Positions 4,690-24,388 of a DNA stretch of 30,486 bases are shown here, in pieces. The stretch is taken from contig QMLM01000001.1 in NCBI GenBank assembly GCA_003646745.1, positions 1 to 30,486 on the forward strand, written 5' to 3'. Numbering within the stretch: position 1 is the first letter of the stretch; the number at the start of each line of letters is the position of its first letter. The DNA comes from Deltaproteobacteria bacterium. GTDB taxonomy: Bacteria; Desulfobacterota; B13-G15; RBG-16-54-18. The notes beneath the pieces were generated by a model, which worked only from the letters and a program-made list of their open reading frames with translations, was not told the origin of the DNA and searched no databases. The position numbers and the translations under genes are program-made.

Positions 4690-4699
4690 CTATGCATAC

Positions 4700-5079: not shown

Positions 5080-5092
5080 TTGACTCTGTCAA
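5080..5092. promoter_or_regulatory. Inverted repeat TTGAC-N3-GTCAA, also a minus-strand TTGACA -35 candidate, upstream of the regulatory cassette
   Basis: Sequence TTGACTCTGTCAA in the 103-bp gap between nuoN and the first DRTGG gene. Function inferred only. Confidence 0.3.
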
Positions 5093-5159
5093 CAAGGATG
5101 ATATGAAGCATGCCGGGGAGAGGATTGTCCTAGAACAGATGCAGATCTTCTAAACACTC

Positions 5160-6626
5160 TTACAGTAAGAACTGAACAGAACGTTGGGCCAAGGCCAAAA
5201 AGGTGGAGGGTAATATCCCAATTTGCAACACACCCCATACAGATATAATTACAGCCAAGACAGCAGATGGTGAAAAGGCACCCACCGCCAGCTCCCTCTC
5301 CGGCTCCCGGAAATACATGTAGATCAGCACCCTGAGGTAGTAATAGGCGGCCACTGCACTATTCAAGACCCCTATGACGGCAAGCCAGTAGTACCTGGCC
5401 TTCACTGCCGCGCTGAACACATAGAACTTGGCCATAAAACCGGCCATGGGGGGCACCCCTGCCAACGAAAGCATAAAGATGGACATGGAGGCCGCCAGTA
5501 GGGGGTGCTTAAATCCGACTCCTGCATAATCCGCTAGCTGGGTATTCTCTTCCCCCTTTTTCCCCAAAAGGATTACCACTGTAAAGGCCCCTATGTTCAT
5601 AAAGACATAGGCCAACAGATAAAACAGAATACTTGATTTGCCCAGCTCGTTTCCGGCCACAAAGGCCACCATGATATAACCGGCATGGGCAATACTGGAA
5701 TAGGCCAGCATCCTCTTTATGTTTGTTTGGGAAAGGGCAATGATGTTGCCCACCGTCATGGTGGCAACAGCTAGTATCCACATAATCTGCGTCCAATAGG
5801 CCTGAAGATTGGGTAAGGCATAGAAAAAGACCCTTACAAAGGCGGCAAATCCTGCAGCCTTGACCCCTGTGGCCATAAAGGCGGTAATGGAGGTTGGTGC
5901 CCCCTCATATACGTCGGGGGTCCACATATGAAAGGGCACCAGGGCTATCTTAAAACCAAACCCAATGATAAGCAGCGCAAGCCCGATGATCACTATGGGG
6001 AGGCTGCTAATCCAAGCCTGCCTTGTGAGGACCTCGCCGATCCCAGCCAGGTCAAGGGTTCCTGTGGAGGCATAGGTAAGAGCGATACCGTAGAGGAGAA
6101 ATGCCGAGGCAAAGGCCCCCAGCAAAAAATATTTAAAAGCTGCCTCCACCGATCTGGTGTCATCGCGCATGATGCCGGCCAACACATAGATGGAGATAGA
6201 CATCACCTCCAACCCCAAGAAGATGATCAGAAGATTAACCCCCGAGGCCATCAACATCATCCCCACGGTGGCAAATAACACAAGAACGTAATACTCCCCT
6301 AGATCTATCCCTTCCCTCTTGGTGTATCCCAGGGAGGCCAAAATGGTCAAAAAGGCAACGATCAAAAACATGACCTTGAAGAAGAGACAGAATGGATCCA
6401 TCGTCACCATGCCGTTGAATGCCTTAATTTCCTTGCCAATTCCTAAAAACAGTGAGAAAAAGGCTATCACTACACCCACCAGGGCGGTATAACCGAGTGG
6501 GCCTCTGCTTTGTCTGCGAACAAACACACTTAGGATCAAGACAAATAGGGCGAAGATGGTCAATACTAACTCAGGGGCGATAACCTTCAGATCTGCCGCT
6601 GAAAACTGGATTTTGAAGATCTCCAT
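5160..6626 (-). CDS. nuoN: NADH-quinone oxidoreductase subunit N
   Basis: GLEVMS, EAAFKYFLLGAFASAFLLYG, GFKIALVPFHMWTPDVYEGAP, KRMLAYSSIAH and FMAKF motifs. Confidence 0.95.
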   Translation of the reverse strand: MEIFKIQFSAADLKVIAPELVLTIFALFVLILSVFVRRQSRGPLGYTALVGVVIAFFSLFLGIGKEIKAFNGMVTMDPFCLFFKVMFLIVAFLTILASLGYTKREGIDLGEYYVLVLFATVGMMLMASGVNLLIIFLGLEVMSISIYVLAGIMRDDTRSVEAAFKYFLLGAFASAFLLYGIALTYASTGTLDLAGIGEVLTRQAWISSLPIVIIGLALLIIGFGFKIALVPFHMWTPDVYEGAPTSITAFMATGVKAAGFAAFVRVFFYALPNLQAYWTQIMWILAVATMTVGNIIALSQTNIKRMLAYSSIAHAGYIMVAFVAGNELGKSSILFYLLAYVFMNIGAFTVVILLGKKGEENTQLADYAGVGFKHPLLAASMSIFMLSLAGVPPMAGFMAKFYVFSAAVKARYYWLAVIGVLNSAVAAYYYLRVLIYMYFREPERELAVGAFSPSAVLAVIISVWGVLQIGILPSTFLALAQRSVQFLL

Positions 6627-6633
6627 CTCCTTC

Positions 6634-8214
6634 TTACTCCTTTATCAACAATTTAACCTTCGACCCCTTCACTCCTTTGACCAAAAATCCGCCTCCCTCC
6701 GGGGCCGTCACCGCAGCCTCATACCTAGCTTTGACGTCATAGAGGAAGTGTTGTACCGAGAGGTCCATCTTCTTAAAGAAGAACTTCGGGAAGATTCCCA
6801 TCCAGAAGATCATGATGATGATGGGTACCAAGGTCACAATCTCCCGGAAGTTGAGATCCTTGAGTCCTCGATTTTCCGGGTGTTTGATATCCCCAAACAT
6901 CACCCGTTGAAACATCCAAAGCATATAGGCCGCCGCCAAAATCACCCCTGTGGCCCCGAAGACCCCGTATACCGGGTTGGCCTTAAAGGTCCCCAAAAGG
7001 ATCAGAAATTCCCCCACAAAGCCGTTGGTCCCAGGCAGGGCGATGGAGGACAGCGCCACGATCATGAAGAAAGTAGCAAATATCGGCATCACCCGCGAGA
7101 GCCCGCCGAAATCGGCGATCAGCCTGGTATGTCTCCTCTCATAGATCATCCCCACGATCAAAAACAGTGCCCCCGTGCTCACCCCATGGTTGAGCATCTG
7201 ATAGATGCTCCCCTGTACCCCTTGCACGTTAAAGGCGAACATCCCCAGCATGACAAAGCCGAGGTGACTTACACTGGAAAAGGCCACCAATTTCTTAAGG
7301 TCATCTTGCATCATGGAGACCAGGGCTCCGTAGATGATCCCGATAAGTGCCAAGACCGATATCACAGGGATGGCCTTGAAGGCAGCGGCGGGGAATAAGG
7401 GAATAGCAAAACGTATGAAACCGTAAGTCCCCAGCTTCAGCAGAATTCCAGCCAGGATTACGGAGCCGGCGGTGGGGGCTTCCACATGGGCATCGGGCAA
7501 CCATGTGTGGAAGGGGAACATAGGTACCTTGATGGCAAAGGCTAGGGCAAAGGCAGCAAACATTATGTATTGCGTCTTTATGGGGAGGCTCACCTGATAG
7601 AGCTTAAGAAGGTCAAAAGTATAAACACCGGTGGCCTTCCCGTGGAGGAAGTAAAGGGCGATGATGGCCACCAACATCAACACACTCCCCGCCATAGTAT
7701 AAAGGAAGAACTTTATGGCGGCATAAATCCTCCTCGGTCCTCCCCAGACCCCGATGATGAGGTACATGGGGATCAACATGACCTCCCAGAATATATAGAA
7801 GAGAATGAGATCCAGGGCGACAAAGGCCCCGATCATACCGGTCTCCAGAAAGAGGAAGGATATCATGTATTCCTTTACACTCTTCTCGACCGCCCTCCAG
7901 GAGCTAAGGATACACAGCACGGTTAGGAAAGTGGTCAATAGAATCAACAGTAGGCTTATCCCATCAACCCCCATGTAATAGGTGACCCCCCATTCCTTAA
8001 TCCATGGGACTTTTTCCACAAACTGCATCCCGGCCTTACCCTCATCAAAATAAATAAAGAGGGGAAGAGAGATGACAAACTCGACCAGCGAGATGATGAG
8101 GGTCACCCACTTGAGGAGTTCTTCCCTCTCCCTGGGGACAAACAATAGCAGTATCGCCCCTGCAAGGGGCAGGAAGGTAATTGTTGTCAAAATGGGAAAA
8201 CCCAATTGGTTCAT
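6634..8214 (-). CDS. nuoM: NADH-quinone oxidoreductase subunit M
   Basis: [41 protein letters not shown] and GFVGEF motifs. Confidence 0.95.
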
Positions 8215-10214: not shown

Positions 10215-10526
10215 TCACCATTTTAATAGATTTATCTCATCCACCTTTATAGTCCCCCGCCCCCGGTAAAGGAGGACGAAGATGGCTAAGCCCACCGCCG
10301 CCTCAGCCGCCGCCACTGTCATCACAAAAAAGACCATCAAGACCCCATCTAGGGAATCTAAATAGTGGGAGGCGGTGATCAGACTGAGGTTGACGGCACT
10401 GAGCATCATCTCAATACACATAAAGATGACGATGGCATCTCTTCTGATCAGAACTCCTACCGCCCCAATAGCAAAGATTAGGGCACTCACAATCAGGTAA
10501 CAGACTGGTGGCACATTAGGAAGCAT
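10215..10526 (-). CDS. nuoK: NADH-quinone oxidoreductase subunit K
   Basis: [11 protein letters not shown] and [12 protein letters not shown] motifs. Confidence 0.95.
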
Positions 10527-10531: not shown

Positions 10532-11056
10532 CTACCTCTCCTTTTTGCTTAGGATCACTGCTCCAATGATCCCCACCAACAACAGGATGGAGGCCACCTC
10601 AAAGGGGAAGAGGAAGCGGGTAAATAACAGACTCGCCACCGCCTTGATATCGCCCATCTGGGCAATCTTTTCCGGTGTGAACTCCCCCTTTACCCCCGGC
10701 AATACCCTCAGGGCAATCCCATAGACAAGCTCAGCAAAAAGAATTAAGGCCACTACTAGCCCTATTACCTTAGCAGGGGAAAGACGGACCTTATAAGTCC
10801 TCCTCTCCTCCTCCACACTCAACAACATGATGACGAAGATGACCAACATCATGATGGCCCCAGCATAAATCATCACCTGGATGATGGCGATGAACTGGGA
10901 GTTAAGAAGCAAATAGAGGACAGCAATACAAAGAAAATTAAGCACCAAAAACAAAGCCGAGTGGATCGGATTGCGGCGAGTAATTACCATCACCGCAGCA
11001 AATATAGCAGTAAGAGCGGTCAAAATAAAGACGATCCAATGAAAGAGGCTCCCCAT
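10532..11056 (-). CDS. nuoJ: NADH-quinone oxidoreductase subunit J
   Basis: [21 protein letters not shown] and [17 protein letters not shown] motifs. Confidence 0.95.
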
Positions 11057-11062: not shown

Positions 11063-11476
11063 CTACCCCTCCTTCGGTGCGTTGGCCAAAAGCCTCTCTT
11101 TGTCTAAGACGAAGTCTTCTCGACGGTAATCCACAAACTCATAGTTTTTGCCCAATTTGATGGCATTTACCGGACAGGCCTCGGCGCAGAACCCGCAGAA
11201 AATACACCTCGTGACATTTATCTCATAGGTCTCGGGGTACCTTTCCCCTGACTCCAACTCTACGGCTACCAGATGGATGCAATTAGAGGGACACACTGCC
11301 ACACAGAGTCCACATGCCACACAACGGGTATCACCTTTTTCATTTCGCTCGAAAAAATGTACTCCCCTCCACCTAGGGGCCACCTCCCGCTTCTGCTCAG
11401 GATACTGGATGGTCACCGGGCGGGAGAAGAACCTCTTTAGGGTAAGCCTCAATCCTCTCAACAGTGGGACGATCAT
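11063..11476 (-). CDS. nuoI: NADH-quinone oxidoreductase subunit I
   Basis: TIQYPE, CVACGLCVAVCP and CIFCGFCAEACP (2x[4Fe-4S]); position after nuoH. Confidence 0.95.
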   Translation of the reverse strand: MIVPLLRGLRLTLKRFFSRPVTIQYPEQKREVAPRWRGVHFFERNEKGDTRCVACGLCVAVCPSNCIHLVAVELESGERYPETYEINVTRCIFCGFCAEACPVNAIKLGKNYEFVDYRREDFVLDKERLLANAPKEG

Positions 11477-11491: not shown

Positions 11492-12487
11492 TTAAAGGAC
11501 CATGATCAAGCCGGTAAAAAATATATTGGCCAAGGTTAAAGGCAAAAGGACCTTCCAACCGAGCTTCATGATCTGGTCATACCTCAACCTAGGGAAAGTC
11601 CCCCTTTCCCAGATACAGAAGTATACAAGTACACCGGTCTTTATCACGAACCAGATCCAGGAAAGTGAAGGGGGTAAGAAAGGACCATGCCATCCCCCAA
11701 GAAATAGCGTAGTGGCAATAGCACATACCGCCACCAAATGGGCGTATTCCGCCATGAAGAAGAGGGAGAACTTCATGCTGCTGTACTCGATGTTAAAACC
11801 ACAGGCCAGCTCTGCCTCCGCCTCAGGCATATCAAAGGGAGTCCGGTTGATCTCAGCAATGGCGCAGACCAGATAAAAGATAAAGGCGAAGGGTTGATAG
11901 AGGACATTCCAATGCCCTCCAGCCTGCCTTTGAACGATCTCCCCTAAATTGAGGGTCCCCGAGATCATCAACACCCCGATCACCGAAAGGCCCAAGGCCA
12001 ACTCATAACTTATCATCTGGGCTGCCGCTCTCAGGGCCCCGATCACCCCATATTTGTTATAACCCGACCAGCCACCAAGCACAACGCCATACTCCCCTAA
12101 GGAAGCAATACCGAAGACATAAAGTAGACCGATATCTAGGTCGGCTATGGTAAGGGAGACAGTCCTGCCAAAGATCTCAATCTTATCCCCAAAGGGGATC
12201 ACGGCAAAGAGGCACAGCGCCGCCACAATACTGATCATGGGGGCGATGATAAAAATGGTTTTATCCGCCTTAGCCGGAACCACTTCTTCTTTAAAGAAGG
12301 CCTTGATCCCATCGGCGATGGGCTGAAGGAGACCAAAAGGCCCCACCCTATTGGGCCCATATCTTACCTGGATATGACCCAACACCTTTCTCTCCACAAG
12401 GGTAAGATAGGCCACCGTACCCATTAGGACGGCAAAGACCACCACCACCTTCACCACGGCCTCAATCAGAAAATAGACTAGCTCCAT
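11492..12487 (-). CDS. nuoH: NADH-quinone oxidoreductase subunit H
   Basis: ERKVLGHIQVRYGPNRVGPFGLLQPIADGIK, AAQMISYE, NRTPFDMPEAEAEL and FPRLRYDQ motifs. Confidence 0.95.
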   Translation of the reverse strand: MELVYFLIEAVVKVVVVFAVLMGTVAYLTLVERKVLGHIQVRYGPNRVGPFGLLQPIADGIKAFFKEEVVPAKADKTIFIIAPMISIVAALCLFAVIPFGDKIEIFGRTVSLTIADLDIGLLYVFGIASLGEYGVVLGGWSGYNKYGVIGALRAAAQMISYELALGLSVIGVLMISGTLNLGEIVQRQAGGHWNVLYQPFAFIFYLVCAIAEINRTPFDMPEAEAELACGFNIEYSSMKFSLFFMAEYAHLVAVCAIATTLFLGGWHGPFLPPSLSWIWFVIKTGVLVYFCIWERGTFPRLRYDQIMKLGWKVLLPLTLANIFFTGLIMVL

Positions 12488-12497: not shown

Positions 12498-15062
12498 TCA
12501 AACCTTCTCTAACCTGGCGGGAATCCTCCCGTAAGCTGGTACTAAAGAAACAGCATCCAATTGCGGACCCACTAGTTGGGAGGCATCCACTTCATAAAAG
12601 GGGAGATAAAGGGAAAGAACACCCTTCCTCATCCCCTCGGATCTCCTTATCTCTACCTGCACCTCACCCCAGGGGGTGGTAACCTTCACCTTGTCTCCAT
12701 CCCCAATACCCATCTCCTCGGCCTGCTCGGCGCTCATCTCTAAATAAGGATAGGAGAAGACCTTTGCCAACCCCTGAGCCCTCCTCTGGGGGCCAGAGCC
12801 TGTGAGGTGATTATAAAATATGCCCTCTACGGAAAGTAAAAAGGGATAGCCCTCCTCTTGCCCCTCCTGGGTGGGTCCTACAGGGCTAAAGACCGCCTTT
12901 TCCAAAAGATTATCCCTACCCCCACCCCGCAATTGGGTATCTGAGGCCTCAAATTCCAGCCCTCCATAGAGGGGATTGACACCTCTGATCTCCTCAAAGG
13001 TCCCTGCTGGAGACTCAGCCTTCATCTCCTTGCCCATGAAGGCCGCCAGATCCGATAAAACCTCACCTTCCCACCTCAGACCATCTGGGGGCTCCAAGGC
13101 CTTGCGCAACCTCTGAACCCTTCCCTCACAATTGGTATATGTACCGTCCAACTCAGCAAAGGATAGGGCCGGTAGGACCACATGGGCCTGCTCGGCCGTC
13201 TCTGAAAAGAACATATCCTGAACTACCAACAGCTCCAGGGCCTTTAGCCCCTCTTCTACGAGAGACCTGGGAAGGGTAATCAGGGGGTTTTCCCCCAAGA
13301 TAAACAAGGCCTTTAATTCCCCCTTGGAAGCTGCCTGAAACATCTCCACTGCCGAAAGCCCCCTTCCATTTCCTGGACGATACCCCGAAAGGAGCAGGGG
13401 AGTTGCCCCCATCTCCACGGCACCTACCATATTGGCCTGAGGTCCGACAAAGTGAAAACCCCCTCCACCGGTAAGGGCCCCGGCAAGAAGCGCCAAGTTG
13501 ACCAACCCCTTCACCTGATCTACCCCGTATGGCTGCTGCCCGAAAGGAGGAGAACAGATAAAGGCGGGCCTTTTCGCCTTGGCAAGGTGCTGTGCCGCCT
13601 CTGTAAGCAGCTCCTGAGAGACGCCAATTAGCTCCTCTACATGCTCAGGCGTAAACTTCTTGGCGGCCTCCTTGAGGGCATCCAAGCCTTCTACTGCCTC
13701 CACCCCCACTGCCCAGGCCTCTGGACCTTTCTCCAATAGGAGGTGGATCAATCCATTTGCCCAGACCAACTCGTCCCCGGGTCGTAGGCAGAACCAACAA
13801 TCTGCCTCTTCGGCCAATCTGACCCGTCTGGGGTGAACCAGTATGAGGTGCGCCCCTTTTCTCCAGAGGGCCTCCCTGACCCGATTGGCGGCGATGAGAT
13901 TATCCCTGTCCAAATCCCCTCCCACTACCACTATACAGTCGGCATCGGCAACATCATCCAAAGTGCTTGGCAGATAATCCCTGCCCAAAACCTCTTTTAT
14001 GGCCAGCCGGTACGGTTCCAGACATAGCCTACCAGTAGTATCTACATTATTGGTCCCCACCACCTCCCTCATGAATTTCTGAAAGAGGTAGACTTCCTCA
14101 TTAGTGCAGCGCGGGGATATCAACCCCCCAACTGTCCCAGGGCCGCTGCTCAAGATGACTTTGTTGATCATCGCTGCAACATAAGAGAGGGCCTCCTCCC
14201 ACGGTACCTCCTTCCAGTTCCCCGCCCCCTTAATCATGGGCCTGGTAATCCTTTCCGTACCATGGAGGAAGTCATATCCAAATCTCCCCCTTACACAGAG
14301 GCTCCCCCTGTTAGCCCCCTTATCGTCCTGGCTCGTCACCCCTATTACCCGGTTCTCGAAGATATTCAGCTCGAGCTGGCAGCCCAGGGAACAGTAGTTG
14401 CAAGTGGTGAGAACCTTTTGTTGTTGCCAGGGGCGTGCCTTGATCCTGCTGACCCTCTCGGTCAAAGCCCCTACAGGGCAGACCCTGAGACATTCCCCAC
14501 AGGAGATACAGGCCGCAGGGTCCCTTATCCCCACCTCCGCCTCATATCCCTTTCCCACCAGCTCTATAGCCCACGCTCTAGCGATCTCGTGGTCGGCCCT
14601 GATGCAACGCAAACACATAACGCAACGGTCCGCCCACTGCCTGATCAGGGGAGTGGCAAACTCCCTCATTCCCTTAGAGGACCTGGTGGCCTGATACTCC
14701 TGCTGATCTATACCGAACTCGAACACCAAATTTTGCAGTTCACATGCACCAGCCGCATCACATTGAGGACAGTCTAAAGGGTGATTAAGCAAAATGAGTT
14801 TGAGGGCATCACGGCGAATGCGCTCCAGCCTCTCCGTCTGGGTGCGAACCACTATTCCATCCTGCACATAGGTAGTACAAGCGGTCATGGGCCTCTCCGC
14901 ACCTTCTATCTCCACCACACAGAGGCGACAAGAACCGATGGGGATCAACCGAGGATGATAGCAGAGGGTAGGTATATAGATCCCGTTCTCCCGCGCCACC
15001 TCCAGGATGGTTTTGTCTGACTCAGCCGTGATCTGCTTGCCATCTATGGTCAATCTAACCAT
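12498..15062 (-). CDS. NuoG/formate-dehydrogenase-alpha-like Fe-S protein resembling Geobacter SfrA (NADPH oxidoreductase alpha subunit)
   Basis: [2Fe-2S] (PTLC..GSCRLC..C), HPLDCPQCDAAGAC, CVMCLRCIRADHEI/CISCGECLRVCP and CNYCSLGC..C motifs, then a degenerate molybdopterin-oxidoreductase body. Start moved to ATG 15062 (GGAGGAG upstream). SfrA similarity is from recall, not a search. Confidence 0.75.
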   Translation of the reverse strand: MVRLTIDGKQITAESDKTILEVARENGIYIPTLCYHPRLIPIGSCRLCVVEIEGAERPMTACTTYVQDGIVVRTQTERLERIRRDALKLILLNHPLDCPQCDAAGACELQNLVFEFGIDQQEYQATRSSKGMREFATPLIRQWADRCVMCLRCIRADHEIARAWAIELVGKGYEAEVGIRDPAACISCGECLRVCPVGALTERVSRIKARPWQQQKVLTTCNYCSLGCQLELNIFENRVIGVTSQDDKGANRGSLCVRGRFGYDFLHGTERITRPMIKGAGNWKEVPWEEALSYVAAMINKVILSSGPGTVGGLISPRCTNEEVYLFQKFMREVVGTNNVDTTGRLCLEPYRLAIKEVLGRDYLPSTLDDVADADCIVVVGGDLDRDNLIAANRVREALWRKGAHLILVHPRRVRLAEEADCWFCLRPGDELVWANGLIHLLLEKGPEAWAVGVEAVEGLDALKEAAKKFTPEHVEELIGVSQELLTEAAQHLAKAKRPAFICSPPFGQQPYGVDQVKGLVNLALLAGALTGGGGFHFVGPQANMVGAVEMGATPLLLSGYRPGNGRGLSAVEMFQAASKGELKALFILGENPLITLPRSLVEEGLKALELLVVQDMFFSETAEQAHVVLPALSFAELDGTYTNCEGRVQRLRKALEPPDGLRWEGEVLSDLAAFMGKEMKAESPAGTFEEIRGVNPLYGGLEFEASDTQLRGGGRDNLLEKAVFSPVGPTQEGQEEGYPFLLSVEGIFYNHLTGSGPQRRAQGLAKVFSYPYLEMSAEQAEEMGIGDGDKVKVTTPWGEVQVEIRRSEGMRKGVLSLYLPFYEVDASQLVGPQLDAVSLVPAYGRIPARLEKV

Positions 15063-15078
15063 CGCTCCTCCCATCTTA

Positions 15079-17034
15079 CTACCCTATGGCCACCATACCG
15101 ACGCGATAACAACGCAGGCAGCGAGCAGCTTCCCGCATGGCCGTATCGACGGGAAAACCTTCCTCCACCTCCTCAAAGCTCCACTTCCTGGTGTCTGCAG
15201 GGAGGGCCTTGAGCTGTTCCCTCTTCCTGCCCGGGATGATCCCAATATGCTCCTCAGGGTCGTAGACCCCTATCTCACCCATCAACTTCTCCAGCCGCTC
15301 GTCATCGCTAGCCTCTACTTTCTCACCCCTTAGGTAAAGGTCTATCATCTCTGCAGCCAATCGACCACTACCCGCCGCCCTTACCAGGACATCAGGGCCG
15401 GTGACGCAATCTCCTGCGGAAAAGATCTCGGGTTGTGAGGTCTCCATAGTCTCATTATTTACCACCACGGTAGACCATTTGGTGGCCTGCACTCCATCCT
15501 TTTCATCCAAAAAGGATAAATCAACACGTTGGCCAATGGCCGGGATTAATATATCCGTGTCAACGACAAACTCTGAGCCCTTGATGGGAACCGGTCTACG
15601 CCTGCCCGATTCGTCCGGCTCCCCCAGTTCCATCCTAATACACTCTACCCCCACTACCTTTCCCTCCTTAGCGATAATCTTAGTGGGAGCACAGAGATAC
15701 TCAAACTTCACCCCTTCTTCTTCAGCAGCATGTATCTCCTCTTCATCGGCGGGCATCTCTCGACGGGTACGACGATAAAAGAGGTTAACGTCCTTCTTCC
15801 CTATCCGGAAGGAGCTGCGCACACAATCTATGGCAACATTACCCCCCCCTACTACCACTACCCTATCCCCATCTGGATAGGGATCTTTCCCCTTATTTAT
15901 GCTAAAAAGGTATTGTACCCCGGGAATAAAACCCTTATATCCTGCATCTTCCCCCTCCACACGCATAGGGGTGGATCCTTGGGCCCCCACCCCAATAAAG
16001 ATGGCGTCGTACTCCTTTTTCATATCGCTGATGCTTATGTCTTTTCCTACTTCGGTATTATATCTGATTTCTACCCCCAAGGAGGTGATGATATCCACCT
16101 CCCGGCGCAGGATGTGACGGGGCAGTCGGTAGTCGGGGATACCTACCGCGGCCATCCCTCCTGGTTCATCCAGCCTTTCAAAGATGGTGATCGGATAACC
16201 CTTAAGGGCTAAGTAATAGGCACAAGTAAGACCGGCTGGGCCTGCTCCAATGACCGCCACCTTTTTGTCCTTTCTGTCCTGAGGGGTGGGGATAAGGGGC
16301 TTTCTCTTTTTCTCTATCTCATAATCGGCCACAAACCTCTTTAGGTGCCTGATGTCGAGGGCCTCATCTACATTGAGCCTGCGGCAGTTGGACTCACAGG
16401 GACGAATGCATACCCTCCCTAAGGTACCTGGCAGACAGGTTCTCTCCCTGATAACCCGAAGGGAGTCGGCGAAATCTCCCTCTGCTATACACTCAATATA
16501 AGTGGGGATGTTCAAATGAGCAGGGCAGGCATTCATACAGGGGGCGGTGAGTTTAACCTTATAATTTCCTCGCGGAACCTTCTTCTTGCCCCTGATCACC
16601 TCCTCAAACTCCTCGCGAAAATACTTCAAGGCCATCAGGAGGGGGAAGGGACCAGTCTGGCCTAGATTGCACTTGGAACCCTCTAAAATGGAGTGCCCCA
16701 AAGACTCCATCAACTCCAGATCCTCCATTCTCCCCTCACCCTGCGTGATCCTGTCCAAGGTCTCGGCGATCACCTTGGTGCCAACCCTGCAGGGGAAACA
16801 TTTCCCGCAGGACTCCTTCTGTACCGCCTCCATATATGCCCGGCACATATCGACAATGCTGACATCTGTGTCGCGCACGGCAAAACCGTTCCAACCCATG
16901 AAGGCCTTTATTCGAACGCCCGGTTTGAATTCAGCGGGCAATTTTAGCCTCTCCGGCTCGGCATATTCCTGCGGGGCCTTCCCCCTGTTATCGGTCAGTT
17001 TTCCTCCCCAATAGCTAAAAACTACATCTGCCAT
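15079..17034 (-). CDS. GltD-like FAD/NAD(P)H oxidoreductase with N-terminal NuoF-type [4Fe-4S] domain, resembling Geobacter SfrB
   Basis: ESCGKCFPCRVG..C (NuoF N3-like), APCMNACP/GRVCIRPCESNCRR (GltD Fe-S), GAGPAG (FAD), GGGNVAIDC with YRRTRREMPA (NADPH-type basic motif), C-terminal EAARCLRC. N-terminus VVFSYWG..DNR..AFMGW resembles SfrB as recalled. Start at ATG 17034. Confidence 0.8.
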   Translation of the reverse strand: MADVVFSYWGGKLTDNRGKAPQEYAEPERLKLPAEFKPGVRIKAFMGWNGFAVRDTDVSIVDMCRAYMEAVQKESCGKCFPCRVGTKVIAETLDRITQGEGRMEDLELMESLGHSILEGSKCNLGQTGPFPLLMALKYFREEFEEVIRGKKKVPRGNYKVKLTAPCMNACPAHLNIPTYIECIAEGDFADSLRVIRERTCLPGTLGRVCIRPCESNCRRLNVDEALDIRHLKRFVADYEIEKKRKPLIPTPQDRKDKKVAVIGAGPAGLTCAYYLALKGYPITIFERLDEPGGMAAVGIPDYRLPRHILRREVDIITSLGVEIRYNTEVGKDISISDMKKEYDAIFIGVGAQGSTPMRVEGEDAGYKGFIPGVQYLFSINKGKDPYPDGDRVVVVGGGNVAIDCVRSSFRIGKKDVNLFYRRTRREMPADEEEIHAAEEEGVKFEYLCAPTKIIAKEGKVVGVECIRMELGEPDESGRRRPVPIKGSEFVVDTDILIPAIGQRVDLSFLDEKDGVQATKWSTVVVNNETMETSQPEIFSAGDCVTGPDVLVRAAGSGRLAAEMIDLYLRGEKVEASDDERLEKLMGEIGVYDPEEHIGIIPGRKREQLKALPADTRKWSFEEVEEGFPVDTAMREAARCLRCYRVGMVAIG

Positions 17035-17127: not shown

Positions 17128-18819
17128 TCATCGGTCTATCTCCCCCAGGACGATATCAATACTCCCGATGACGGCCACCACATCGGCCACCAGATGCCCT
17201 TTAATCATCTCCGGCAAGGCCGCTAAGTTCACAAAACAAGGGGGTCGAATGCGGTACCGATAAGGGTGATTGCTTCCATCGCTTACCAGATACCAGCCTA
17301 ATTCTCCCTTAGGATTTTCGATACTGGCGTAAACCTCTCCTGGAGGTGGCGATATATCCTCGGACTTGAGCTTGAAGTGACGGATCAGGGCATTGATCTC
17401 CTCCGCTACCAGTTCTTTACTGGGAGGCGTCACCTTGGGGTCATAGTAGTTGACCTCCCCATCAGGGAGCCTGTCTAGGGCCTGATGGATGATTCTGGCA
17501 GACTGCCTCATCTCCTCCAGCCGCACGAGATACCTGTCGTAGACATCTCCCTTCTCGCCGATGGGGATCTCAAAATCAAACTCCTCATAACTAGAATAAG
17601 GAAAGACCTTGCGAATGTCCCACCTGACCCCTGACCCCCTCAGCACTGGACCTGTAAGCCCCCAGTTGATGGCCTCATCCGCCGTGATGACCCCCACATC
17701 TTTGGTCCTCTTCAACCAGATGATGTTCTCAGTAAGCAGCGTCTCATATTCGTGAATGCGTCGGGGAAAATCCTCTAGGAAGGCCCTGATCCTCCCCTCA
17801 ATGCCATCGGGCAAGTCAGCGGCCAGTCCCCCTATGCGCAAAAAGCTGGGGGTGAGCCTGGCACCGGTGACGTGTTCCAGGATGTCAAGGACTGTCTCCC
17901 TTTCCCGGAAGGTGTAAAAGAGCACGGTCATGGCCCCCATGTCCAGGGCATGGGTGGCTAGCCAAAGCAGGTGCGCTGCGATCCTTTGCAGTTCGGCCAG
18001 CATCACCCTAATGTACTGGGCCCTCTTGGGCACCTCTATTCCGAGGAGTTTCTCCACGGCCAGAATATAGGCCAAGTTATTAGATATCCCGGCGGTATAG
18101 TCTAAACGGTCGGTGAGGGTAACAGCTTGTGTATAGGTCATGTTCTCAGCCAATTTCTCCACGCCTCTATGGAGGTGGCCGATGTAGGGGATGGCATCAA
18201 CGATTACCTCCCCATCTAGCTTCAACACCAAACGCAACACCCCATGGGTGGCCGGGTGCTGGGGCCCCATATTTAAGATCATATACCTTTGCCCCTCACC
18301 CGTATCTGGGAACTTCGGTATGACATCGGGGGGCTCTGCCGGCACCTCGTAATGCTCGAAGTCCTCCCCCCGCAACGGAAAGTCCTTCCTCAGGGGATGG
18401 CCCTGGTAACCCTCCCAAGTCAAGATACGGCGCAAATCACTGTGTCCCTCAAAGGGGACCCCTAACATATCGTAAACCTCCCGCTCTAACCAATTGGCCG
18501 CCTTCCAGATCGACTCCACCGTAGAGAGCGCCTCGCCCTCACTTACCGAGGCCTTGATCCTCAACCTCTTATTCCGCCTCATGGAATAGAGGTGGTACAC
18601 TACCTCGAACCTCTCCTCCCTCTGGGGATAATCGACGCCACATATATCGGTGAGGAAATCAAAGGCGAGATCGGGGTCATCACGGAGGAACTTACAGATG
18701 GGGAGGATATCTTCTCGCTTTACCTTAATGGTCATTTCACCCTGAAAGGAGTAGGTCTCCAAGATGGAGTCGGGGAATTGCTCCTTCAGCCTCTTATGGG
18801 CGACCTCCACATCCCACAT
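17128..18819 (-). CDS. nuoCD: Fused NADH-quinone oxidoreductase subunit C/D
   Basis: NuoC part (EREVYDMLG..GHPLRKDFP) fused to NuoD part (NMGPQHPATHGVLRL, DRLDY, SIDIVLGEIDR). No NiFe CxxC motifs. Confidence 0.95.
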   Translation of the reverse strand: MWDVEVAHKRLKEQFPDSILETYSFQGEMTIKVKREDILPICKFLRDDPDLAFDFLTDICGVDYPQREERFEVVYHLYSMRRNKRLRIKASVSEGEALSTVESIWKAANWLEREVYDMLGVPFEGHSDLRRILTWEGYQGHPLRKDFPLRGEDFEHYEVPAEPPDVIPKFPDTGEGQRYMILNMGPQHPATHGVLRLVLKLDGEVIVDAIPYIGHLHRGVEKLAENMTYTQAVTLTDRLDYTAGISNNLAYILAVEKLLGIEVPKRAQYIRVMLAELQRIAAHLLWLATHALDMGAMTVLFYTFRERETVLDILEHVTGARLTPSFLRIGGLAADLPDGIEGRIRAFLEDFPRRIHEYETLLTENIIWLKRTKDVGVITADEAINWGLTGPVLRGSGVRWDIRKVFPYSSYEEFDFEIPIGEKGDVYDRYLVRLEEMRQSARIIHQALDRLPDGEVNYYDPKVTPPSKELVAEEINALIRHFKLKSEDISPPPGEVYASIENPKGELGWYLVSDGSNHPYRYRIRPPCFVNLAALPEMIKGHLVADVVAVIGSIDIVLGEIDR

Positions 18820-18831: not shown

Positions 18832-19347
18832 TTATCGAATCTCTTCTGGTTGGAGGGGACGAATCTCATCCTTCCTGTCCAGAAGGCTCTCACCCATGAT
18901 CTTATTCTGCAATTTTATCAAGGCCGTCAAGAGGGCCTCAGGTCTGGGGGGGCAACCTGGCACATAGACATCCACTGGGATGATCTGATCCACCCCTTGC
19001 ACCACATTATAGGTTTGAAATATTCCACCTGAAGAGGCGCAGGCCCCATAAGCGATCACCCATTTAGGCTCAGGCATCTGCTCGTAAATCCTCTTAACCA
19101 TGGGGGCCATCTTTTTGGTAACCGTGCCCGCCACGATCATAAGGTCTGCCTGTCTGGGGGAGGGGCGAAATACCTCAGCGCCAAATCTAGCAATGTCATA
19201 GGCCGCCGAACTGGTGACCATCATCTCCAGGGCGCATCAAGCCAGCCCAAAGGTCACCGGCCAAAGGGAGTTCTTTCGCGCCCAATTGACCAATTTGCTG
19301 AGAGAGGTCGTGATGATGTTATCCCCTAACTTGACCTCTATTCCCAT
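18832..19347 (-). CDS. nuoB: NADH-quinone oxidoreductase subunit B with in-frame TGA at codon 37 (19237-19239); candidate selenoprotein, 171 aa
   Basis: Manual extension upstream of the 130-aa track ORF gives [46 protein letters not shown]..., followed by [16 protein letters not shown] and PGCPPRPEA. The start ATG 19347 overlaps the end of nuoA. Confidence 0.9.
19204..19239 (-). promoter_or_regulatory. Putative bacterial SECIS hairpin directly after the nuoB UGA
   Basis: mRNA UGA-UG-CGCC-CUGG-AGA-UGA-[UGG]-UCA-CCAG-UUC-GGCG folds by hand into CGCC/GGCG, CUGG/CCAG and UGA/UCA stems, with a G-containing apical loop 16 nt after the UGA. Not computed. Confidence 0.6.
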
Positions 19348-19694
19348 TCCAGCGCTCCTTTCCTCCATACATATATAAAACCCAATAATAGAATAAAAAT
19401 GAAAATCATCATCTCCACAAAGCCAAATATCCCTAACTCCCTAAAGACCACCGCCCAAGGGTACAAAAAGACCACCTCTAGGTCAAAGACCAAAAAGAGC
19501 ATGGCGATGATGTAATACTTTATCGGAATGGCCTGATGGGTGGGGCCTAAAGAGATCATCCCACACTCATAGGGAGCAGCTTTTACCGGATGGACCCTCT
19601 TAGGCCCCAACAGATGGGAGAGGAAGACGACAAAGACGGCAAAAAATATAGACAAGGCCAATAAAAACAGAACAGGCACATACTTAATGAGCAT
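19338..19694 (-). CDS. nuoA: NADH-quinone oxidoreductase subunit A
   Basis: [28 protein letters not shown] and WRKGALEWE motifs. Confidence 0.95.
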
Positions 19695-19937: not shown

Positions 19938-20918
19938 ATGTTAGATATGTTAGACACGATGTATCTTGGTGTTGATGTAGGTTCCATCACCACTAAAGTG
20001 GTGGCCATTGATGAGGCGGACCAGATCAGGGCCAAGGTCTATCTGCGTAACATCGGCAGGCCCCTAGAGGCGATAAAGAAAGGGCTCCGTATGATAAAGG
20101 ACCAACTCGGGGACAACCTGGAGGTTCAAGGGATAGGGACTACGGGGAGCGCCCGCCACCTAGCGGCTTACCTCTTGGGGGCAGATGTGGTGAAAAACGA
20201 GATCACCGCCCATGCCGTGGCCGTAGTCGACTTCCTCCCCGAGGTCCAAACCATTATCGAGATCGGCGGACAGGACTCCAAGATCATCATCTTACAGGAG
20301 GGGGTGGTGGTGGACTTTGCCATGAACACGGTATGTGCGGCAGGGACTGGCTCCTTTTTGGATCAACAGGCCGCCCGGTTGGGGATATCTGTGGAAGAAT
20401 TCGGTCAGTTGGCCCTAAAGGCGACAAAAAGGGTGAGGATAGCGGGCAGATGCACAGTCTTTGCCGAGACCGATATGATCCACAAACAGCAGCTGGGCTT
20501 TCAAACTGAGGAGATCATTGCCGGGCTCTGCAGCTCCCTGGTCAAGAACTATCTCAACGACGTGGCCAGAGGAAAAGATCTCCTCCCCCCATTGGTATTT
20601 CAGGGCGGCGTGGCTGCCAATCCGGGCATAAGGAAGGCATTCGAAGAGGAGCTAGGGGTGCCCTTGGTGATCCCTCCCCACTTTGAAGTCATGGGGGCCC
20701 TCGGGGCAGCGAAACTTGCCCGCCGAGCTGGTGTATCCAGTAGCAAGTTTAAAGGATTTGATATAGCTCACAGCGAATGTTTCACCCGCAGTATAGAGTG
20801 TGACGGGTGCGGGAACAATTGTGAGGTGATAGAATTGATAGTGAATGGAGAAACCATCGCCTACTGGGGTGACAGGTGCGGTAAGTTCAGCGAGGCCTTC
20901 CGCTCCAAAGAGGGATGA
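19938..20918 (+). CDS. Acyl-CoA dehydratase activase (BadF/BadG/BcrA/BcrD, HgdC-like [4Fe-4S] ATPase) with Cys-rich C-terminal tail
   Basis: GVDVGSITTK, NEITAH, EIGGQDSK, CAAGTGSFLD, RCTVFAE and GGVAAN motifs; tail CDGCGNNC..GDRC. Start uncertain (19938, 19947 or 19959). Confidence 0.85.
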   Translation: MLDMLDTMYLGVDVGSITTKVVAIDEADQIRAKVYLRNIGRPLEAIKKGLRMIKDQLGDNLEVQGIGTTGSARHLAAYLLGADVVKNEITAHAVAVVDFLPEVQTIIEIGGQDSKIIILQEGVVVDFAMNTVCAAGTGSFLDQQAARLGISVEEFGQLALKATKRVRIAGRCTVFAETDMIHKQQLGFQTEEIIAGLCSSLVKNYLNDVARGKDLLPPLVFQGGVAANPGIRKAFEEELGVPLVIPPHFEVMGALGAAKLARRAGVSSSKFKGFDIAHSECFTRSIECDGCGNNCEVIELIVNGETIAYWGDRCGKFSEAFRSKEG

Positions 20919-22276
20919 GGATTTTACTGACAAACCCGGCCAATGCCGGCATCCTCAGGGCAATAGGAGTTCACTTCCCCCCCATGGTGCTGTGGTATCT
21001 AGGCGCATACCTAGAAAAAGAGGGGTATCAGGTGGAGATAAGGGACTTTTGCGTCCCTGGGAAAAGGCCCAACTACTCTCAATATGATCTAGTGGGCATC
21101 TCCACTGATACCACTCGCCACTTCAAGGCCATGGAGATCGCTCGGAGGGCAAAAGAAGCGGGCTGCACGGTGGTGATGGGAGGACCCCATCCATGTTATA
21201 TAGATGAGGAGATGTTCGCCAGCCGATGGGTGGATTTCATCGTCCATGGGGAGGGAGAGATAACCCTTTTGGAACTGGTCAGGGCCCTGGAAAAGGGGGA
21301 AAAGGATCTAGAAAGGATAAAGGGGATCAGCTTTCAAAGGGATGGTGAGGTGGTGAGAACCCCACCTCGCCCTTTTATCCAAGATCTGGATTCTTTGCCT
21401 TTGCCTGCACGCCACCTGATAGATATGGGTCTCTATCGAAGGACCAGATTTGGCAACCGGGCTATCACCCCTGTGGTAACGAGCAGGGGTTGCCCGGCAA
21501 ATTGCAACTTTTGTTCTTCTTCCAGCTTTTTCGGCAGAAAGTGGAGGGCCAGAAGTCCGGAATCGGTGGTGGAAGAATTGGAAGAACTACAATATAAATA
21601 TGGTTTTAGAGCTGTGGCCTTCGTCGACGACAATTTTACCCTCTCCCCTAAAAGGGTAATGGCCATCTCTGAGGGCATCATCAAAAAAGGGCTGGATATC
21701 TGGTGGTGGAATTTCTCTCGGGCAGAGACCATTGTGAAAAACGAGGAGATGCTGAAGGTGATGAAGAGGGCTGGGGCCAAGACCATCTATATCGGGGTGG
21801 AGAGCGCCAGCCCTCAGACCCTCGTCGAACTCGGAAAGAGGATGGACCTGAATACGGTGGTGAAGGCGGTAGAGGTATTAAAAAAACATGGCTTTGAGAT
21901 ATTCGCCAGCTATATTTTGGGAAGTCCCGGCGATAAAGTGAAGGACATCCATGAGACCATTCGCTTTGCCAAAAGACTGGATACCAATGTGGCCCAGTTC
22001 TCCATCCTCACCCCCTATCCAGGCACCTCCCTTTATGAAGAACTGAAGCACAAGATCTGGACACGACACTGGCCCTTCTATGACTCCCAACACTTGGTAT
22101 ATAGACACGATCACATATCCTTTATCAGGATGGAGTGGCTATTGTTGAAAGCCAATCTCCTCTATTACACACGTTCCCGAAAGGCCTTAAAGGATGTTTG
22201 GCGTGTGGCCAAAAGACATAAACTGGGGTGGGGGACACTTTTGAAGTTTCTCCGAGACTACTTCTGGGGTAAGTGA
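20915..22276 (+). CDS. B12-binding-domain radical SAM protein
   Basis: N-terminal cobalamin-binding domain (LVGIS..VVMGGPHP..GEGE), SRGCPANCNFC (CxxxCxxC), FVDDNF and GVES motifs. ATGA overlap with the activase. Confidence 0.9.
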   Translation: MRILLTNPANAGILRAIGVHFPPMVLWYLGAYLEKEGYQVEIRDFCVPGKRPNYSQYDLVGISTDTTRHFKAMEIARRAKEAGCTVVMGGPHPCYIDEEMFASRWVDFIVHGEGEITLLELVRALEKGEKDLERIKGISFQRDGEVVRTPPRPFIQDLDSLPLPARHLIDMGLYRRTRFGNRAITPVVTSRGCPANCNFCSSSSFFGRKWRARSPESVVEELEELQYKYGFRAVAFVDDNFTLSPKRVMAISEGIIKKGLDIWWWNFSRAETIVKNEEMLKVMKRAGAKTIYIGVESASPQTLVELGKRMDLNTVVKAVEVLKKHGFEIFASYILGSPGDKVKDIHETIRFAKRLDTNVAQFSILTPYPGTSLYEELKHKIWTRHWPFYDSQHLVYRHDHISFIRMEWLLLKANLLYYTRSRKALKDVWRVAKRHKLGWGTLLKFLRDYFWGK

Positions 22277-23178
22277 AGATGCGCTCTGGGGGGCGGCTCA
22301 ACAGATTCTTCTTCCTTTTTTGGTTTTATTTCTTCGCCACCATCATTCCCCGTCCTTTACAGAGGGTTTTCACCATCTCCATAGGCACTCTTTTTTACCT
22401 GCTTATGCCCAAGACCAGGCAAGCGGTGAAGGAAAACCTAAAGGTGATCGGGAGGGGAAGGTGGGGTAAAAAGGAGATAGCCGCCCTTGCCAGAAGTACT
22501 TTCCAAAACTACGGGCAATACCTCCTCGACTATATGGTGATGCATCGTCTAAGCTCCAAGAACAAAGGCAAAACGGTTGAGCGGGAACTGGGACATGAAA
22601 ATATGATTGAAGCCCTGGACAGGGGAAAGGGGGTCATCTGCATCACCCCTCACCTAGGCAACTGGGAACTGGGGGGGTTGTTGCTTGCCTTCAAGGGCTG
22701 TGACCTGTACGTCCTCACCCTTGATGAAGTCGATCCCAAGATCAAGGCCTTCCGGGAGCGGATGAGGGCAGCAAAGGGGATCAAAAACATCTACATAGAC
22801 CCCGAAAACCCAACCCCCTCTGCTATCTTGGAGGTGGTGAGGGTCCTTAAGGAAAATAAGGTAGTGGCTATGTTAGGAGACCGTTCAGGAGGGGCCAACA
22901 CCATTGAATTGGACTTTTTCGGGCGCAGGACCCCTTTCCCCACGGGTGCCGCCACCTTGGCCATGACAACAGGAGCAGCGGTTTTGCCCGTCTTCGTCAT
23001 ACTAAAAGGTGGCAAGTACTGGGGGATCATCGAACGTCCTATTTACTTCCATAGCTCTTCTCAGCAAGGCAAAGAGAGCGAGATCAGGCGGGGGATGGAG
23101 AAGCTGGTAAGGACCTTTGAAAGGTACATCGGGGAGTACCCCGACCAATGGTATAATTTCTTCCCCTATTGGTCCTGA
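22273..23178 (+). CDS. LpxL/HtrB-family (lysophospholipid/lipid A) acyltransferase
   Basis: GKGVICITPHLGNWE, MLGDR, FFGRRTPFP, and C-terminal YPDQWY motifs. GTGA overlap with the radical SAM gene. Confidence 0.85.
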   Translation: MKMRSGGRLNRFFFLFWFYFFATIIPRPLQRVFTISIGTLFYLLMPKTRQAVKENLKVIGRGRWGKKEIAALARSTFQNYGQYLLDYMVMHRLSSKNKGKTVERELGHENMIEALDRGKGVICITPHLGNWELGGLLLAFKGCDLYVLTLDEVDPKIKAFRERMRAAKGIKNIYIDPENPTPSAILEVVRVLKENKVVAMLGDRSGGANTIELDFFGRRTPFPTGAATLAMTTGAAVLPVFVILKGGKYWGIIERPIYFHSSSQQGKESEIRRGMEKLVRTFERYIGEYPDQWYNFFPYWS

Positions 23179-23199
23179 GATCTCACCATCAAAGACATA

Positions 23200-23228
23200 T
23201 TGATTTTAAAAAAATTATGGCCTAAAAT
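23200..23228 (+). promoter_or_regulatory. Candidate sigma70 promoter for the UPF0104 gene
   Basis: TTGATT-17 nt-TAAAAT in an AT-rich gap. Confidence 0.5.
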
Positions 23229-23317
23229 GAATGGCTCTTTGAGCTATCTGTTGGCCTCTTAATACCTTAAGGTTCCAATGTAAGAATTAAAGCGGCTTTT
23301 GACGGCAAATAGCGGTC

Positions 23318-24388
23318 ATGGAGCAAGTACCCCTAAAACCCAGACCTCTTATAACGAAAAGGGGAATCATCGCCTTTGTCTCCATCAGCCTAGCGGCTGC
23401 ATGGATCCTGCTATCCATGTCCTCCTCCCCGGAAACCTGGCAAAATCTGCACCATATAAAGGTAGTCCCACTGCTGCTTTTGGTTGCCGCAGTGATTGCG
23501 ATGTGGTGGCTTGATCTGCTGCGGTTGCGGATTCTTACTTGGGGGGCTAACTCCGATTTTAGCACGTGGTTCGGCTTTCAGTTGGTCTGGGTGAACTTAT
23601 TGGTCTGTGCCGTTACTCCCTTTGAGAGCGGGGGAGGACCAGCCCAGATCATGATGATGACAAAAAAGGGAATCCCCGTAGGTAAAGGAATGGCCATTAC
23701 TTCCATTCGCTCGACCATCACCCTGATATTGCTCTCTTGCACCACTTTGCTGGTGCTCAACTTCTGGCCCCAAATGATGCCCCATTGGCCTCTGAGAAGG
23801 CTATTTTTAGGGATCTCCTTCCCTATCCTTCTATCCATCCTTATCCTGGCGGGGGGGTTGTTCTTCCCCGAAAGGTTAAAATCATGGGGGAAAAAGGTAA
23901 CCTCTTTTTTGCAAAGGTACAGGTTCATCAAGCCAGCCTGGACGGAACGATGGAAGGAGTTCCTCTTCAATATAGTGGATGATCTGAGTGACACCTGTAG
24001 GGGATATATAAGGGAAGGAAAAAGACACCTGATTGGAGCGACACTGATTACCATACTGTTCCTTTGCGCCCATTTTTCCATAGCCCCCCTTATCTTCTGG
24101 TCTTTGGGGGCCCACATCTCCTTCCTGCGGACCATCTTGATCCAGGTCGTCTTAACACTAATGATCTACTTCATCCCCACACCCGGAAGCAGCGGTGCGG
24201 CGGAGGGGGGGTTTTTTCTCCTCTTTTCGCCCTTGATACCTGGCCCAATATTGGGTATATCTGTCCTGCTGTGGCGCTTCTTTACCGTCTATCTTGGGGT
24301 ATTGCTGGGGGCCTTTTCCATCACCCATATCACCCCTTTTTGGACGAAATTGACGGCTCCGGAAAAAATTGTATCCGGGAGGTCTTGA
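23318..24388 (+). CDS. UPF0104 / lysylphosphatidylglycerol-synthase-TM (flippase-like) membrane protein
   Basis: Multiple hydrophobic segments; VTPFESGGGPAQ, IPTPGSSGAAEGGF and LLWRFFT motifs. Confidence 0.75.
   Translation: MEQVPLKPRPLITKRGIIAFVSISLAAAWILLSMSSSPETWQNLHHIKVVPLLLLVAAVIAMWWLDLLRLRILTWGANSDFSTWFGFQLVWVNLLVCAVTPFESGGGPAQIMMMTKKGIPVGKGMAITSIRSTITLILLSCTTLLVLNFWPQMMPHWPLRRLFLGISFPILLSILILAGGLFFPERLKSWGKKVTSFLQRYRFIKPAWTERWKEFLFNIVDDLSDTCRGYIREGKRHLIGATLITILFLCAHFSIAPLIFWSLGAHISFLRTILIQVVLTLMIYFIPTPGSSGAAEGGFFLLFSPLIPGPILGISVLLWRFFTVYLGVLLGAFSITHITPFWTKLTAPEKIVSGRS

Follow-up and report, generated by a model that had tools for sequence, protein, structure and literature searches.

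Complex I is known to exchange its electron-input subunits while its Q- and P-modules are kept. In Campylobacter and Helicobacter NuoG is retained and NuoE and NuoF are replaced, and the archaeal Fpo complex uses FpoF (PMC3144371). For sulfate reducers, sulfur disproportionators and syntrophs, genome papers have repeatedly described a Nuo complex without NuoEFG whose electron donor is unknown (e.g., PMC4911364, PMC12142623). Here we describe a nuo operon of a Deltaproteobacteria bacterium (phylum Desulfobacterota, assembly GCA_003646745.1) in which the donor module is neither a set of flavodoxin-linked proteins nor the F420H2 dehydrogenase FpoF of the above systems, but a putative GltD-type NADPH flavoprotein (P0001, the beta subunit) and a protein that appears to derive from formate dehydrogenase (FDH; P0002, the alpha subunit). 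The operon lies on contig QMLM01000001.1, whose entire length of 30,486 nucleotides was analyzed and is referred to as the window; the metagenome-assembled genome (MAG) to which it belongs comprises 1.78 Mb in 278 contigs and is 86.6% complete.

The SfrAB pair of Geobacter sulfurreducens is reportedly a soluble NADPH oxidoreductase. Its architecture is like that of the window pair, with a beta subunit combining a GltD-type FAD/NADPH core and an N-terminal NuoF-like Fe-S domain, and an Fdh-alpha-like alpha subunit with a NuoG-type N-terminus. Free-standing Desulfuromonadales pairs (a comparison that leaves aside GSU0509/0510) share 51% identity with the window pair in beta and 32% in alpha, and the alpha subunit of Geothermobacter is catalytically degenerate, as is that of the window. 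SfrAB differs in being free-standing and soluble, whereas the window pair is encoded between nuoCD and nuoH and its alpha subunit is predicted to sit on NuoI. The Moorella-type NADP-dependent FdhAB (KEGG K15022, a name that JGI gives to many close homologues) has a beta subunit of the same family. It is also soluble, in contrast to the window's alpha subunit, which would be linked to a membrane complex and lacks the catalytic His, Arg and Lys.

In the StnABC/NfnABC transhydrogenases, too, a GltD-type NADPH/FAD domain is wired via [4Fe-4S] clusters to a NuoG-like domain. Cryo-EM of StnC (PDB 8oh5) has revealed FAD and an NADPH site; the FAD is non-bifurcating, and two [4Fe-4S] clusters lead in a linear path to a NuoG-like domain, the FdhF-like part of which is inactive (PMC10482914). 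In StnC, however, both parts are fused and electrons pass to a soluble NuoEF-like bifurcating module, whereas the window encodes separate proteins, its beta subunit has an N3-type domain of its own and the acceptor would be the Nuo Q-module. The canonical 14-subunit complex I has the Q- and P-module subunits in common with the window, as well as a chain of clusters like that of NuoG, a domain for an N3-type cluster, and the His and Tyr of the quinone site. It differs from the window operon in having NuoE and an FMN-binding NuoF where the latter has a GltD-type FAD/NADPH fold, in that the window's alpha subunit is nearer to FdsA than to NuoG, and in the selenocysteine (Sec) codon that the window has at a ligand of cluster N2. 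We also considered the “12-subunit” complex I of G. sulfurreducens as the same arrangement, but this was ruled out as NUO12 is a BCD fusion with NuoE, NuoF and NuoG present. Exchange of the input module in complex I is thus a known theme. Full-text literature searches returned no description of a GltD-type NADPH flavoprotein with an FDH-derived alpha subunit as complex I input, or of a Sec codon at an N2 ligand.

The operon is on the minus strand, ends at 5160 and has the order nuoA-B-CD-[SfrB/FdhB-like flavoprotein]-[FdhA/NuoG-like protein]-nuoH-N (Table 1). This order and the coordinates of the two inserted genes had been given by the original prediction from the sequence, and both were borne out; the end it placed at 17034 is that of an ATG, with a GTG start lying at 17040. 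The operon has 13 genes. Owing to the nuoCD fusion, 10 of them suffice for the 11 core Nuo subunit functions. The intergenic gaps range from -10 to 87 nt, and no terminator-like site was found in any of them. Domain searches confirmed that there is no nuoE and no nuoF between nuoCD and nuoH, nor elsewhere inside the operon, from which the FMN-binding NuoF fold (PF01512) is absent. The Q-module (NuoB, C, D and I) and P-module (NuoA, H and J-N) are complete and their functional residues are kept, as had been claimed for NuoD and the antiporter subunits. NuoD retains the quinone-site residues His192 (GPQHPATHGV) and Tyr241 (DRLDY). The Glu motif of transmembrane helix (TM) 5 and the Lys motifs of TM7/TM8, identified by what we take to be their usual patterns, are intact in NuoL, NuoM and NuoN where recognizable. 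By tblastn with the window's Nuo proteins, no second nuoA, nuoB, nuoCD, nuoH, nuoJ or nuoK was found in the genome, and the operon is the only nuo set found in the MAG.

The flavoprotein P0001 consists of two parts. Residues ~35-150 match the C-terminal Fe-S domain of NuoF (TIGR01959 positions 296-410 of 410) and contain the ligands of an N3-type [4Fe-4S] cluster, Cys78/81/84/124; among solved chains, residues 1-165 matched the C-termini of HydB/StnB/NuoF-type subunits. Residues 165-575 form a GltD/NfnB-type core with two [4Fe-4S] sites and FAD and NAD(P)H folds, in which the three motifs named in the original prediction were all located (GAGPAG at 265, GGGNVAID at 398 and YRRTRR at 422). The C-terminal tail to residue 644 closes with a lone CxxC (Cys641-x-x-Cys644, window 15109-15120, RCLRCYRVGMVAIG), the same position at which the alignment with fused StnC-type proteins stops. 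The models PRK12771 (477 bits) and PRK12814 (489 bits) both scored under their cut-offs. The closest solved chains, over residues 164-644, are NfnA (9n5u_A and 9bov_A) and StnC (8oh5_C), with E values of 1e-107 to 1e-118, and the GltD core also shows homology to NfnB, a bifurcating protein (4ylf_B and 5jca_L, E about 1e-95). The stretch YRRTRREMPA of P0001 agrees with the same stretch in the two solved chains aligned by residue, NfnA 9n5u_A and 9bov_A. The proposal that the N3-type domain had been borrowed for this operon did not hold, as the domain is present across the SfrB family and free-standing SfrB-type proteins align over residues 3-653.

The alpha subunit P0002 has the domains Fer2_4, NADH-G_4Fe-4S_3, Fer4_Nqo3, Molybdop_Fe4S4, Molybdopterin and Molydop_binding. 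It aligned over its full length with Rhodobacter capsulatus FdsA (431 bits) and only over its N-terminal half with NuoG (237 bits); no solved NuoG comes as close to it as FdsA does. It fell below the cut-offs of both the FDH alpha model TIGR01591 (447 versus 666) and the NuoG model TIGR01973 (407 versus 470). Ligands are present for the 2Fe-2S cluster, the His-ligated cluster, the ferredoxin-type clusters and the N7/FeS-0-type cluster. In the first ferredoxin-type CxxCxxCxxxC motif the fourth Cys is replaced by Asp161 (codon 14592-14594); this position is Asp in the window and most close relatives and Cys in three related loci (L005, L100 and L101), which suggests a [3Fe-4S] or an Asp-ligated cluster in some members. 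At the formate site, Cys386-His387 of FdsA align with Cys351-Leu352 of P0002, so that the molybdenum (Mo)-site Cys is kept and the catalytic His is replaced by Leu. Gly544 stands in place of the catalytic Arg, and Arg262 in place of the Lys adjoining FeS-0. The same degenerate state was found throughout the window's family (f1). The formate site of P0002 thus looks dead and its Fe-S wire intact, and an active FDH in the window was ruled out by the replacement of the catalytic His, Arg and Lys. With the catalytic His and Arg lost, the conserved NAD(P)H/FAD site of the flavoprotein is the only substrate site recognized in the window's module. In this respect the original prediction of an NADPH-input module was supported: the pair occupies the NuoEFG slot of the only nuo operon found, and the site left to it is of NADPH type. 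A better description of the pair, however, is that of an NADP-type formate dehydrogenase (FdhB/FdhA) that has decayed and is presumably attached to complex I.

A complete Sec-containing FDH active site was identified in the nuo-embedded alpha subunits of seven other loci (L098, L131, L132, L136, L138, L140 and L144), which have the Lys, Sec(TGA)-His and Arg in the motifs CVKGRFG, HCARL-TGA-HSSTVAGL and NPLRGQNNVQG. The alpha subunit of L139 has Cys-His at this site and that of L137 has lost only the His. The operons with the intact site may encode a formate-oxidizing complex I. In L098 the alpha gene (4536-7244) had been split at the TGA by the gene caller. The residue pairs at the degenerate sites differ between the window's family and several others (C-L, N-L, D-L, S-S and A-N), and on the tree of beta subunits the active and degenerate states are separated by at least six changes. 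From these patterns the formate site is seen as having decayed repeatedly, leaving the window's lineage with the flavoprotein as its only substrate site. Within the module, conservation is lowest in the Mo domain, which has 76% identity to L005 and falls to 38% in L096. Against L005 the identities of the other parts were 88% for the GltD core, 87% for the alpha Fe-S part, 87% for NuoCD and 91% for NuoH, so that conservation of the flavoprotein core is as high as that of the core Nuo subunits.

To the original prediction, the location of the pair within a nuo operon was a departure from free-standing sfrAB. The pair is indeed embedded here, but a survey of 400 further genomes of the window's phylum showed that this is common: the flavoprotein gene lies within a nuo operon in at least 44 of them, in at least 14 families. 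This count consists of 43 verified genomes and G025 (identified with L008), and the number is probably about 56 of the 400. In the 30 best loci, the window's own included, nuoD is directly upstream in all 29 at 62-100% identity, and 15 of 20 further places at 50-61% identity are inside complete nuo operons. The commonest gene order is A-B-C(D)-beta-alpha-H..N. Variant orders place alpha before nuoA (L098 and L136) or the pair after nuoN (L140), and in four loci there is no alpha gene nearby. In arguing from the genomes that the pair and Nuo are functionally tied, we rely mainly on this linkage to nuo, which outlasts such rearrangement.

More widely, the flavoprotein has thousands of close homologues in Deltaproteobacteria/Thermodesulfobacteriota MAGs, frequently annotated as “formate dehydrogenase (NADP+) beta subunit” or “FAD-dependent oxidoreductase”. 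Desulfuromonadales MAGs (L007, L009 and L013) and a few other families have the pair in free-standing form. The beta tree, which was built without G. sulfurreducens SfrB, contained one clade (support of 100 in the Shimodaira-Hasegawa-like approximate likelihood ratio test, SH-aLRT) of 47 nuo-embedded and 8 free-standing rows, the window's beta subunit and the Desulfuromonadales MAGs among them, in agreement with the predicted membership of the SfrB/SfrA family. The window's beta subunit falls in a clade of 33 rows that are all nuo-embedded (SH-aLRT 95). The free-standing rows are basal or nested, and the well-supported branches force at least three changes of context.

To assess contact with the Q-module, a structure was predicted for the alpha-NuoI pair only. 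The complex obtained a score of 0.73, compared with 0.00 for the best of three controls; the mark for this score is reached by 51 of 78 solved complexes and by 2 of 108 mismatched pairs. Contact agreement between runs was at least 97%, and the predicted local distance difference test (pLDDT) value of the partners was at least 83. The contacts join alpha residues 102-108 (the loop of the HxxxCxxC His/Cys cluster) and 207-217 with NuoI residues 53-60 and 70-79, beside the first CxxCxxC. The predicted contact corresponds to the N5-N6a junction of complex I, as in solved structures. Since complex I structures are already solved, this result demonstrates the likeness of the pair to NuoG and NuoI and is not proof of binding.

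The second unusual feature of the operon is in nuoB. The presence of this gene, which had been listed in the original prediction, was confirmed, but an in-frame TGA within it had been overlooked. Because of this codon a plain open reading frame (ORF) call gives a fragment of only 130 aa. The TGA, in the context GLA-TGA-CALEMM, occupies the place of the first Cys in the tandem-Cys motif that ligates cluster N2, and the resulting ligand positions U37, C38, C103 and C132 have spacings of 65 and 29 residues. The N2 ligands of Thermus thermophilus Nqo6, which we take to be C45/C46/C111/C140, have the same spacing. Relatives in seven families, with 23 distinct sequences, have TGA at this codon, and 13 others have TGT or TGC; two genomes flagged with one TGA in the nuoB search, G290 and G133, proved to have Cys forms. 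A truncated gene or pseudogene was ruled out by the open frame on both sides of a single TGA and by the retention of the TGA in the 23 relatives. All verified TGA-containing nuoB genes among the matches listed are in operons with a P0001-type flavoprotein (309 weaker nuoB matches lie beyond these).

In every TGA-bearing nuoB, a hairpin resembling a selenocysteine insertion sequence (SECIS) starts 20-21 nt past the UGA and has GU in its apical loop. Between sequences the stem shows paired changes (GGUCACC/GGCGGCC, GGUUGCC/GGCAACC, GCUACU/AGUAGC and GUUGCU/AGCAAC), and the mean folding free energy was -9.0 kcal/mol for the TGA forms versus -6.2 for the Cys forms. Folding of the 67 nt downstream of the TGA gave an unremarkable z-score of -1.18, the local 36-nt window being more informative. 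An Rfam scan at the gathering threshold identified one tRNA only and no SECIS family. The genome carries selA, selB, a TGA-containing selD and tRNA-Sec. When the nuoB fragments that follow the TGA in three relatives were looked up by exact match in a sequence collection, none was present; the NCBI record of L096 has no nuoB called, and literature searches found no description of a Sec-containing NuoB. We regard NuoB as a candidate undescribed selenoprotein with Sec at a ligand of cluster N2.

Elsewhere in the genome, a NuoF-family sequence (PF01512) was found only on a 2.9-kb contig (C247), adjoining a NuoE. Matches to the NuoE family (PF01257) were on C247 and at window 712-1266 (a NuoE-like gene) and 3-263 (the start of a NuoE-type-domain protein). 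Directly downstream of nuoN, the minus strand from 5056 to 3 contains DRTGG-domain genes, two histidine-kinase-type ATPase genes, a PHP-domain gene, a sensory [FeFe]-hydrogenase-like gene (Fe_hyd_lg_C and a putative Fe-S domain), the NuoE-like gene and the NuoE-type-domain protein, which runs off the contig. The region looks like a HydABC-type hydrogenase cluster with its regulators. Contigs C252, C34 and C168 carry dsrAB, CODH/ACS and the selD gene, and rnfC was not found in the 86.6%-complete MAG. With dsrAB and CODH/ACS present and rnfC not found, a quinone-linked entry for Wood-Ljungdahl reducing equivalents therefore fits this genome. DNA sequencing runs that contain the operon are labeled as sediment, seawater and hydrothermal vent metagenomes; no RNA sequencing run with the operon or the flavoprotein gene was listed.

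We consider it probable, with moderate confidence, that the operon encodes a proton-pumping NADPH:menaquinone oxidoreductase, possibly a reversible one, in which two subunits that stem from an NADP-type formate dehydrogenase would take the place of the NuoE/NuoF/NuoG module. In this model, for which we infer the NADPH specificity, physical assembly, direction and proton pumping, the FAD of the GltD-type flavoprotein would oxidize NADPH, and the electrons would travel via the two [4Fe-4S] clusters of the flavoprotein and then its N3-type cluster into the Fe-S chain of alpha. The His-ligated (N5-type) cluster of alpha would pass them to NuoI, from which they would reach the N2 cluster in NuoB, with its one presumed selenocysteine ligand, and then menaquinone, with proton pumping by NuoH and NuoJ-N. 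In the reverse direction, NADP+ would be reduced from menaquinol, driven by the proton gradient. Several points weigh against this model. The preference for NADPH rather than NADH is deduced from homology and one motif. Free-standing homologues are nested among the nuo-embedded ones, and therefore the pair can work without Nuo. In addition, the MAG is incomplete and could lack a second nuo set or an rnf cluster, and the NuoE and NuoF homologues on C247 and downstream of nuoN could in principle dock on the alpha subunit.

The nested free-standing pairs would also agree with a different arrangement, in which the two proteins form a soluble SfrAB-like NADPH oxidoreductase (e.g., NADPH:ferredoxin) that is co-transcribed with an 11-subunit, ferredoxin-dependent Nuo and metabolically linked to it but is no subunit of it. 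The variable place of the pair in the operon and the frequency of 11-subunit complexes without NuoG in the phylum (PMC4911364, PMC12142623) are consistent with this. We nevertheless think it unlikely, as alpha retains the full NuoG-type N-terminal cluster set and is predicted on NuoI at the N5/N6a junction, the nuo linkage was kept through several rearrangements across the families surveyed, and the operon has no other NuoG-like gene. Still less probable is that NADH is the true donor, through a NuoE/NuoF from C247 or from the cluster downstream of nuoN docking on alpha, with the flavoprotein as an accessory or regulatory NADPH branch. NADH-specific activity through a NuoEF encoded elsewhere had been named by the original prediction as an observation that would refute it. 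NuoE/NuoF homologues do exist in the genome, two of the NuoE-type genes (712-1266 and 3-263) being on the same strand as the operon and ~4 kb downstream of nuoN. Their contexts, however, are of HydABC hydrogenase type and not nuo, and relatives keep the linkage of flavoprotein and nuo whatever the neighbors. Furthermore, the C-terminal, N3-binding part of NuoF faces NuoG, and because the N-terminal domain of the flavoprotein is homologous to that part, the flavoprotein and NuoF would compete for one site.

Two further explanations appear highly improbable to us. If alpha still oxidized formate, the complex would be a formate:menaquinone oxidoreductase in which the flavoprotein merely balances NADP(H). 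The seven loci with Lys, Sec(TGA)-His and Arg, the Cys-His form of L139 and the Mo-ligand Cys351 kept in the window all point in this direction, but the substitutions of His, Arg and Lys in the window and the whole of its family, the low conservation of the Mo domain and a TIGR01591 score well below the cut-off do not. As improbable is that the flavoprotein FAD bifurcates, sending NADPH electrons both to menaquinone, through the high-potential Nuo chain, and to ferredoxin, through a low-potential branch, following the logic of NfnB or FixABCX. Such an enzyme would be allowed by the homology of the GltD core to bifurcating NfnB and by the presence of two Fe-S exits that are separate, one through the N3-type domain and one through the Fer4_20 clusters. 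However, StnC has the same fold and does not bifurcate, its electrons entering a linear chain. In the flavoprotein we identified no element for ferredoxin docking, and bifurcation together with proton pumping would presumably be energetically demanding.

Table 1. Features of the nuo operon in the 30,486-nt window; domain positions of P0001 are residues of the protein.
Feature	Position	Strand	Basis or remark
nuoA	19338..19694	-	PF00507, E 3e-38
nuoB, 171 codons, in-frame TGA at codon 37	18832..19347	-	NuoB models match residues past the TGA
TGA read as selenocysteine in nuoB (candidate)	19237..19239	-	Same codon TGA in 23 distinct relatives
SECIS-like hairpin GGUCACC-AGUUC-GGCGGCC	19201..19219	-	Starts 20 nt past the UGA
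nuoCD fusion	17128..18819	-	PF00329 and PF00346, E 1e-120
SfrB/FdhB-like flavoprotein P0001 (beta), 653 aa	15079..17040	-	GTG start; alternative ATG at 17034
P0001, PF10589 NuoF Fe-S region	64-147		E 5e-28
P0001, PF14691 Fer4_20	166-245		
P0001, Pyr_redox_2 (PF07992)	259-559		
P0001, GltD-type NCBIfam models	165-644		
Putative FdhA-derived NuoG-like subunit P0002 (alpha), 858 aa	12498..15074	-	Domain matches and FdsA alignment
nuoH	11492..12487	-	PF00146, E 1e-123
nuoI, two CxxCxxCxxxCP motifs	11063..11476	-	TIGR01971, 161 bits, above cut-off
nuoJ	10532..11056	-	PF00499
nuoK	10215..10526	-	PF00420
nuoL, 656 aa	8225..10195	-	ORF; 90% identity to the nuoL-position ORF of L005; GWE150 and K233 motifs
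nuoM, 526 aa	6634..8214	-	ORF; FWE143, K229 and K260 motifs
nuoN, 488 aa	5160..6626	-	ORF; K226 motif; position conserved in relatives

Divergent from the nuo operon, the plus strand from 19938 to 24388 encodes a BadF/BcrA-type ATPase, a B12-binding radical SAM protein, a lipid A acyltransferase-family protein and an LPG-synthase-TM-family protein. These genes are followed by the str operon (rpsL, rpsG, fusA and tuf), a tRNA at 28993-29066, nusG and rplK.

Taken over the phylum, these observations lead us to a tentative scenario, to which we give slightly less than even confidence. In it, a clade of Desulfobacterota complex I would have captured a Sec-containing NADP-type FDH as its input module. 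Some lineages would still couple the oxidation of formate and/or NADPH to proton-pumping menaquinone reduction. In others, the window included, the formate site would have decayed at least six separate times to a pure Fe-S wire. In about half of all these enzymes, with or without formate oxidation, N2 would be Sec-ligated.

Set against the reports of Nuo without NuoEFG, the operon itself names a candidate donor module in more than one tenth of the sampled genomes of the phylum. Gene callers at present miss the Sec-codon nuoB, as in the NCBI record of L096. If Sec is indeed a ligand of N2, it would retune the cluster that donates electrons to quinone, and would be a naturally occurring probe for the step at which electron transfer and proton pumping are coupled. 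We know of no earlier proton-pumping complex I that runs on NADPH; if confirmed, the complex of the window would be the first, and its relatives may include formate-run forms. The energy-yield estimates for Wood-Ljungdahl-dependent anaerobes would then change. Lastly, the series from intact Sec-FDH to decayed NuoG-like subunit is a testable model for the origin of the N-module, and if the scenario is true, these bacteria would present a living replay of the supposed origin of NuoG from a formate dehydrogenase.

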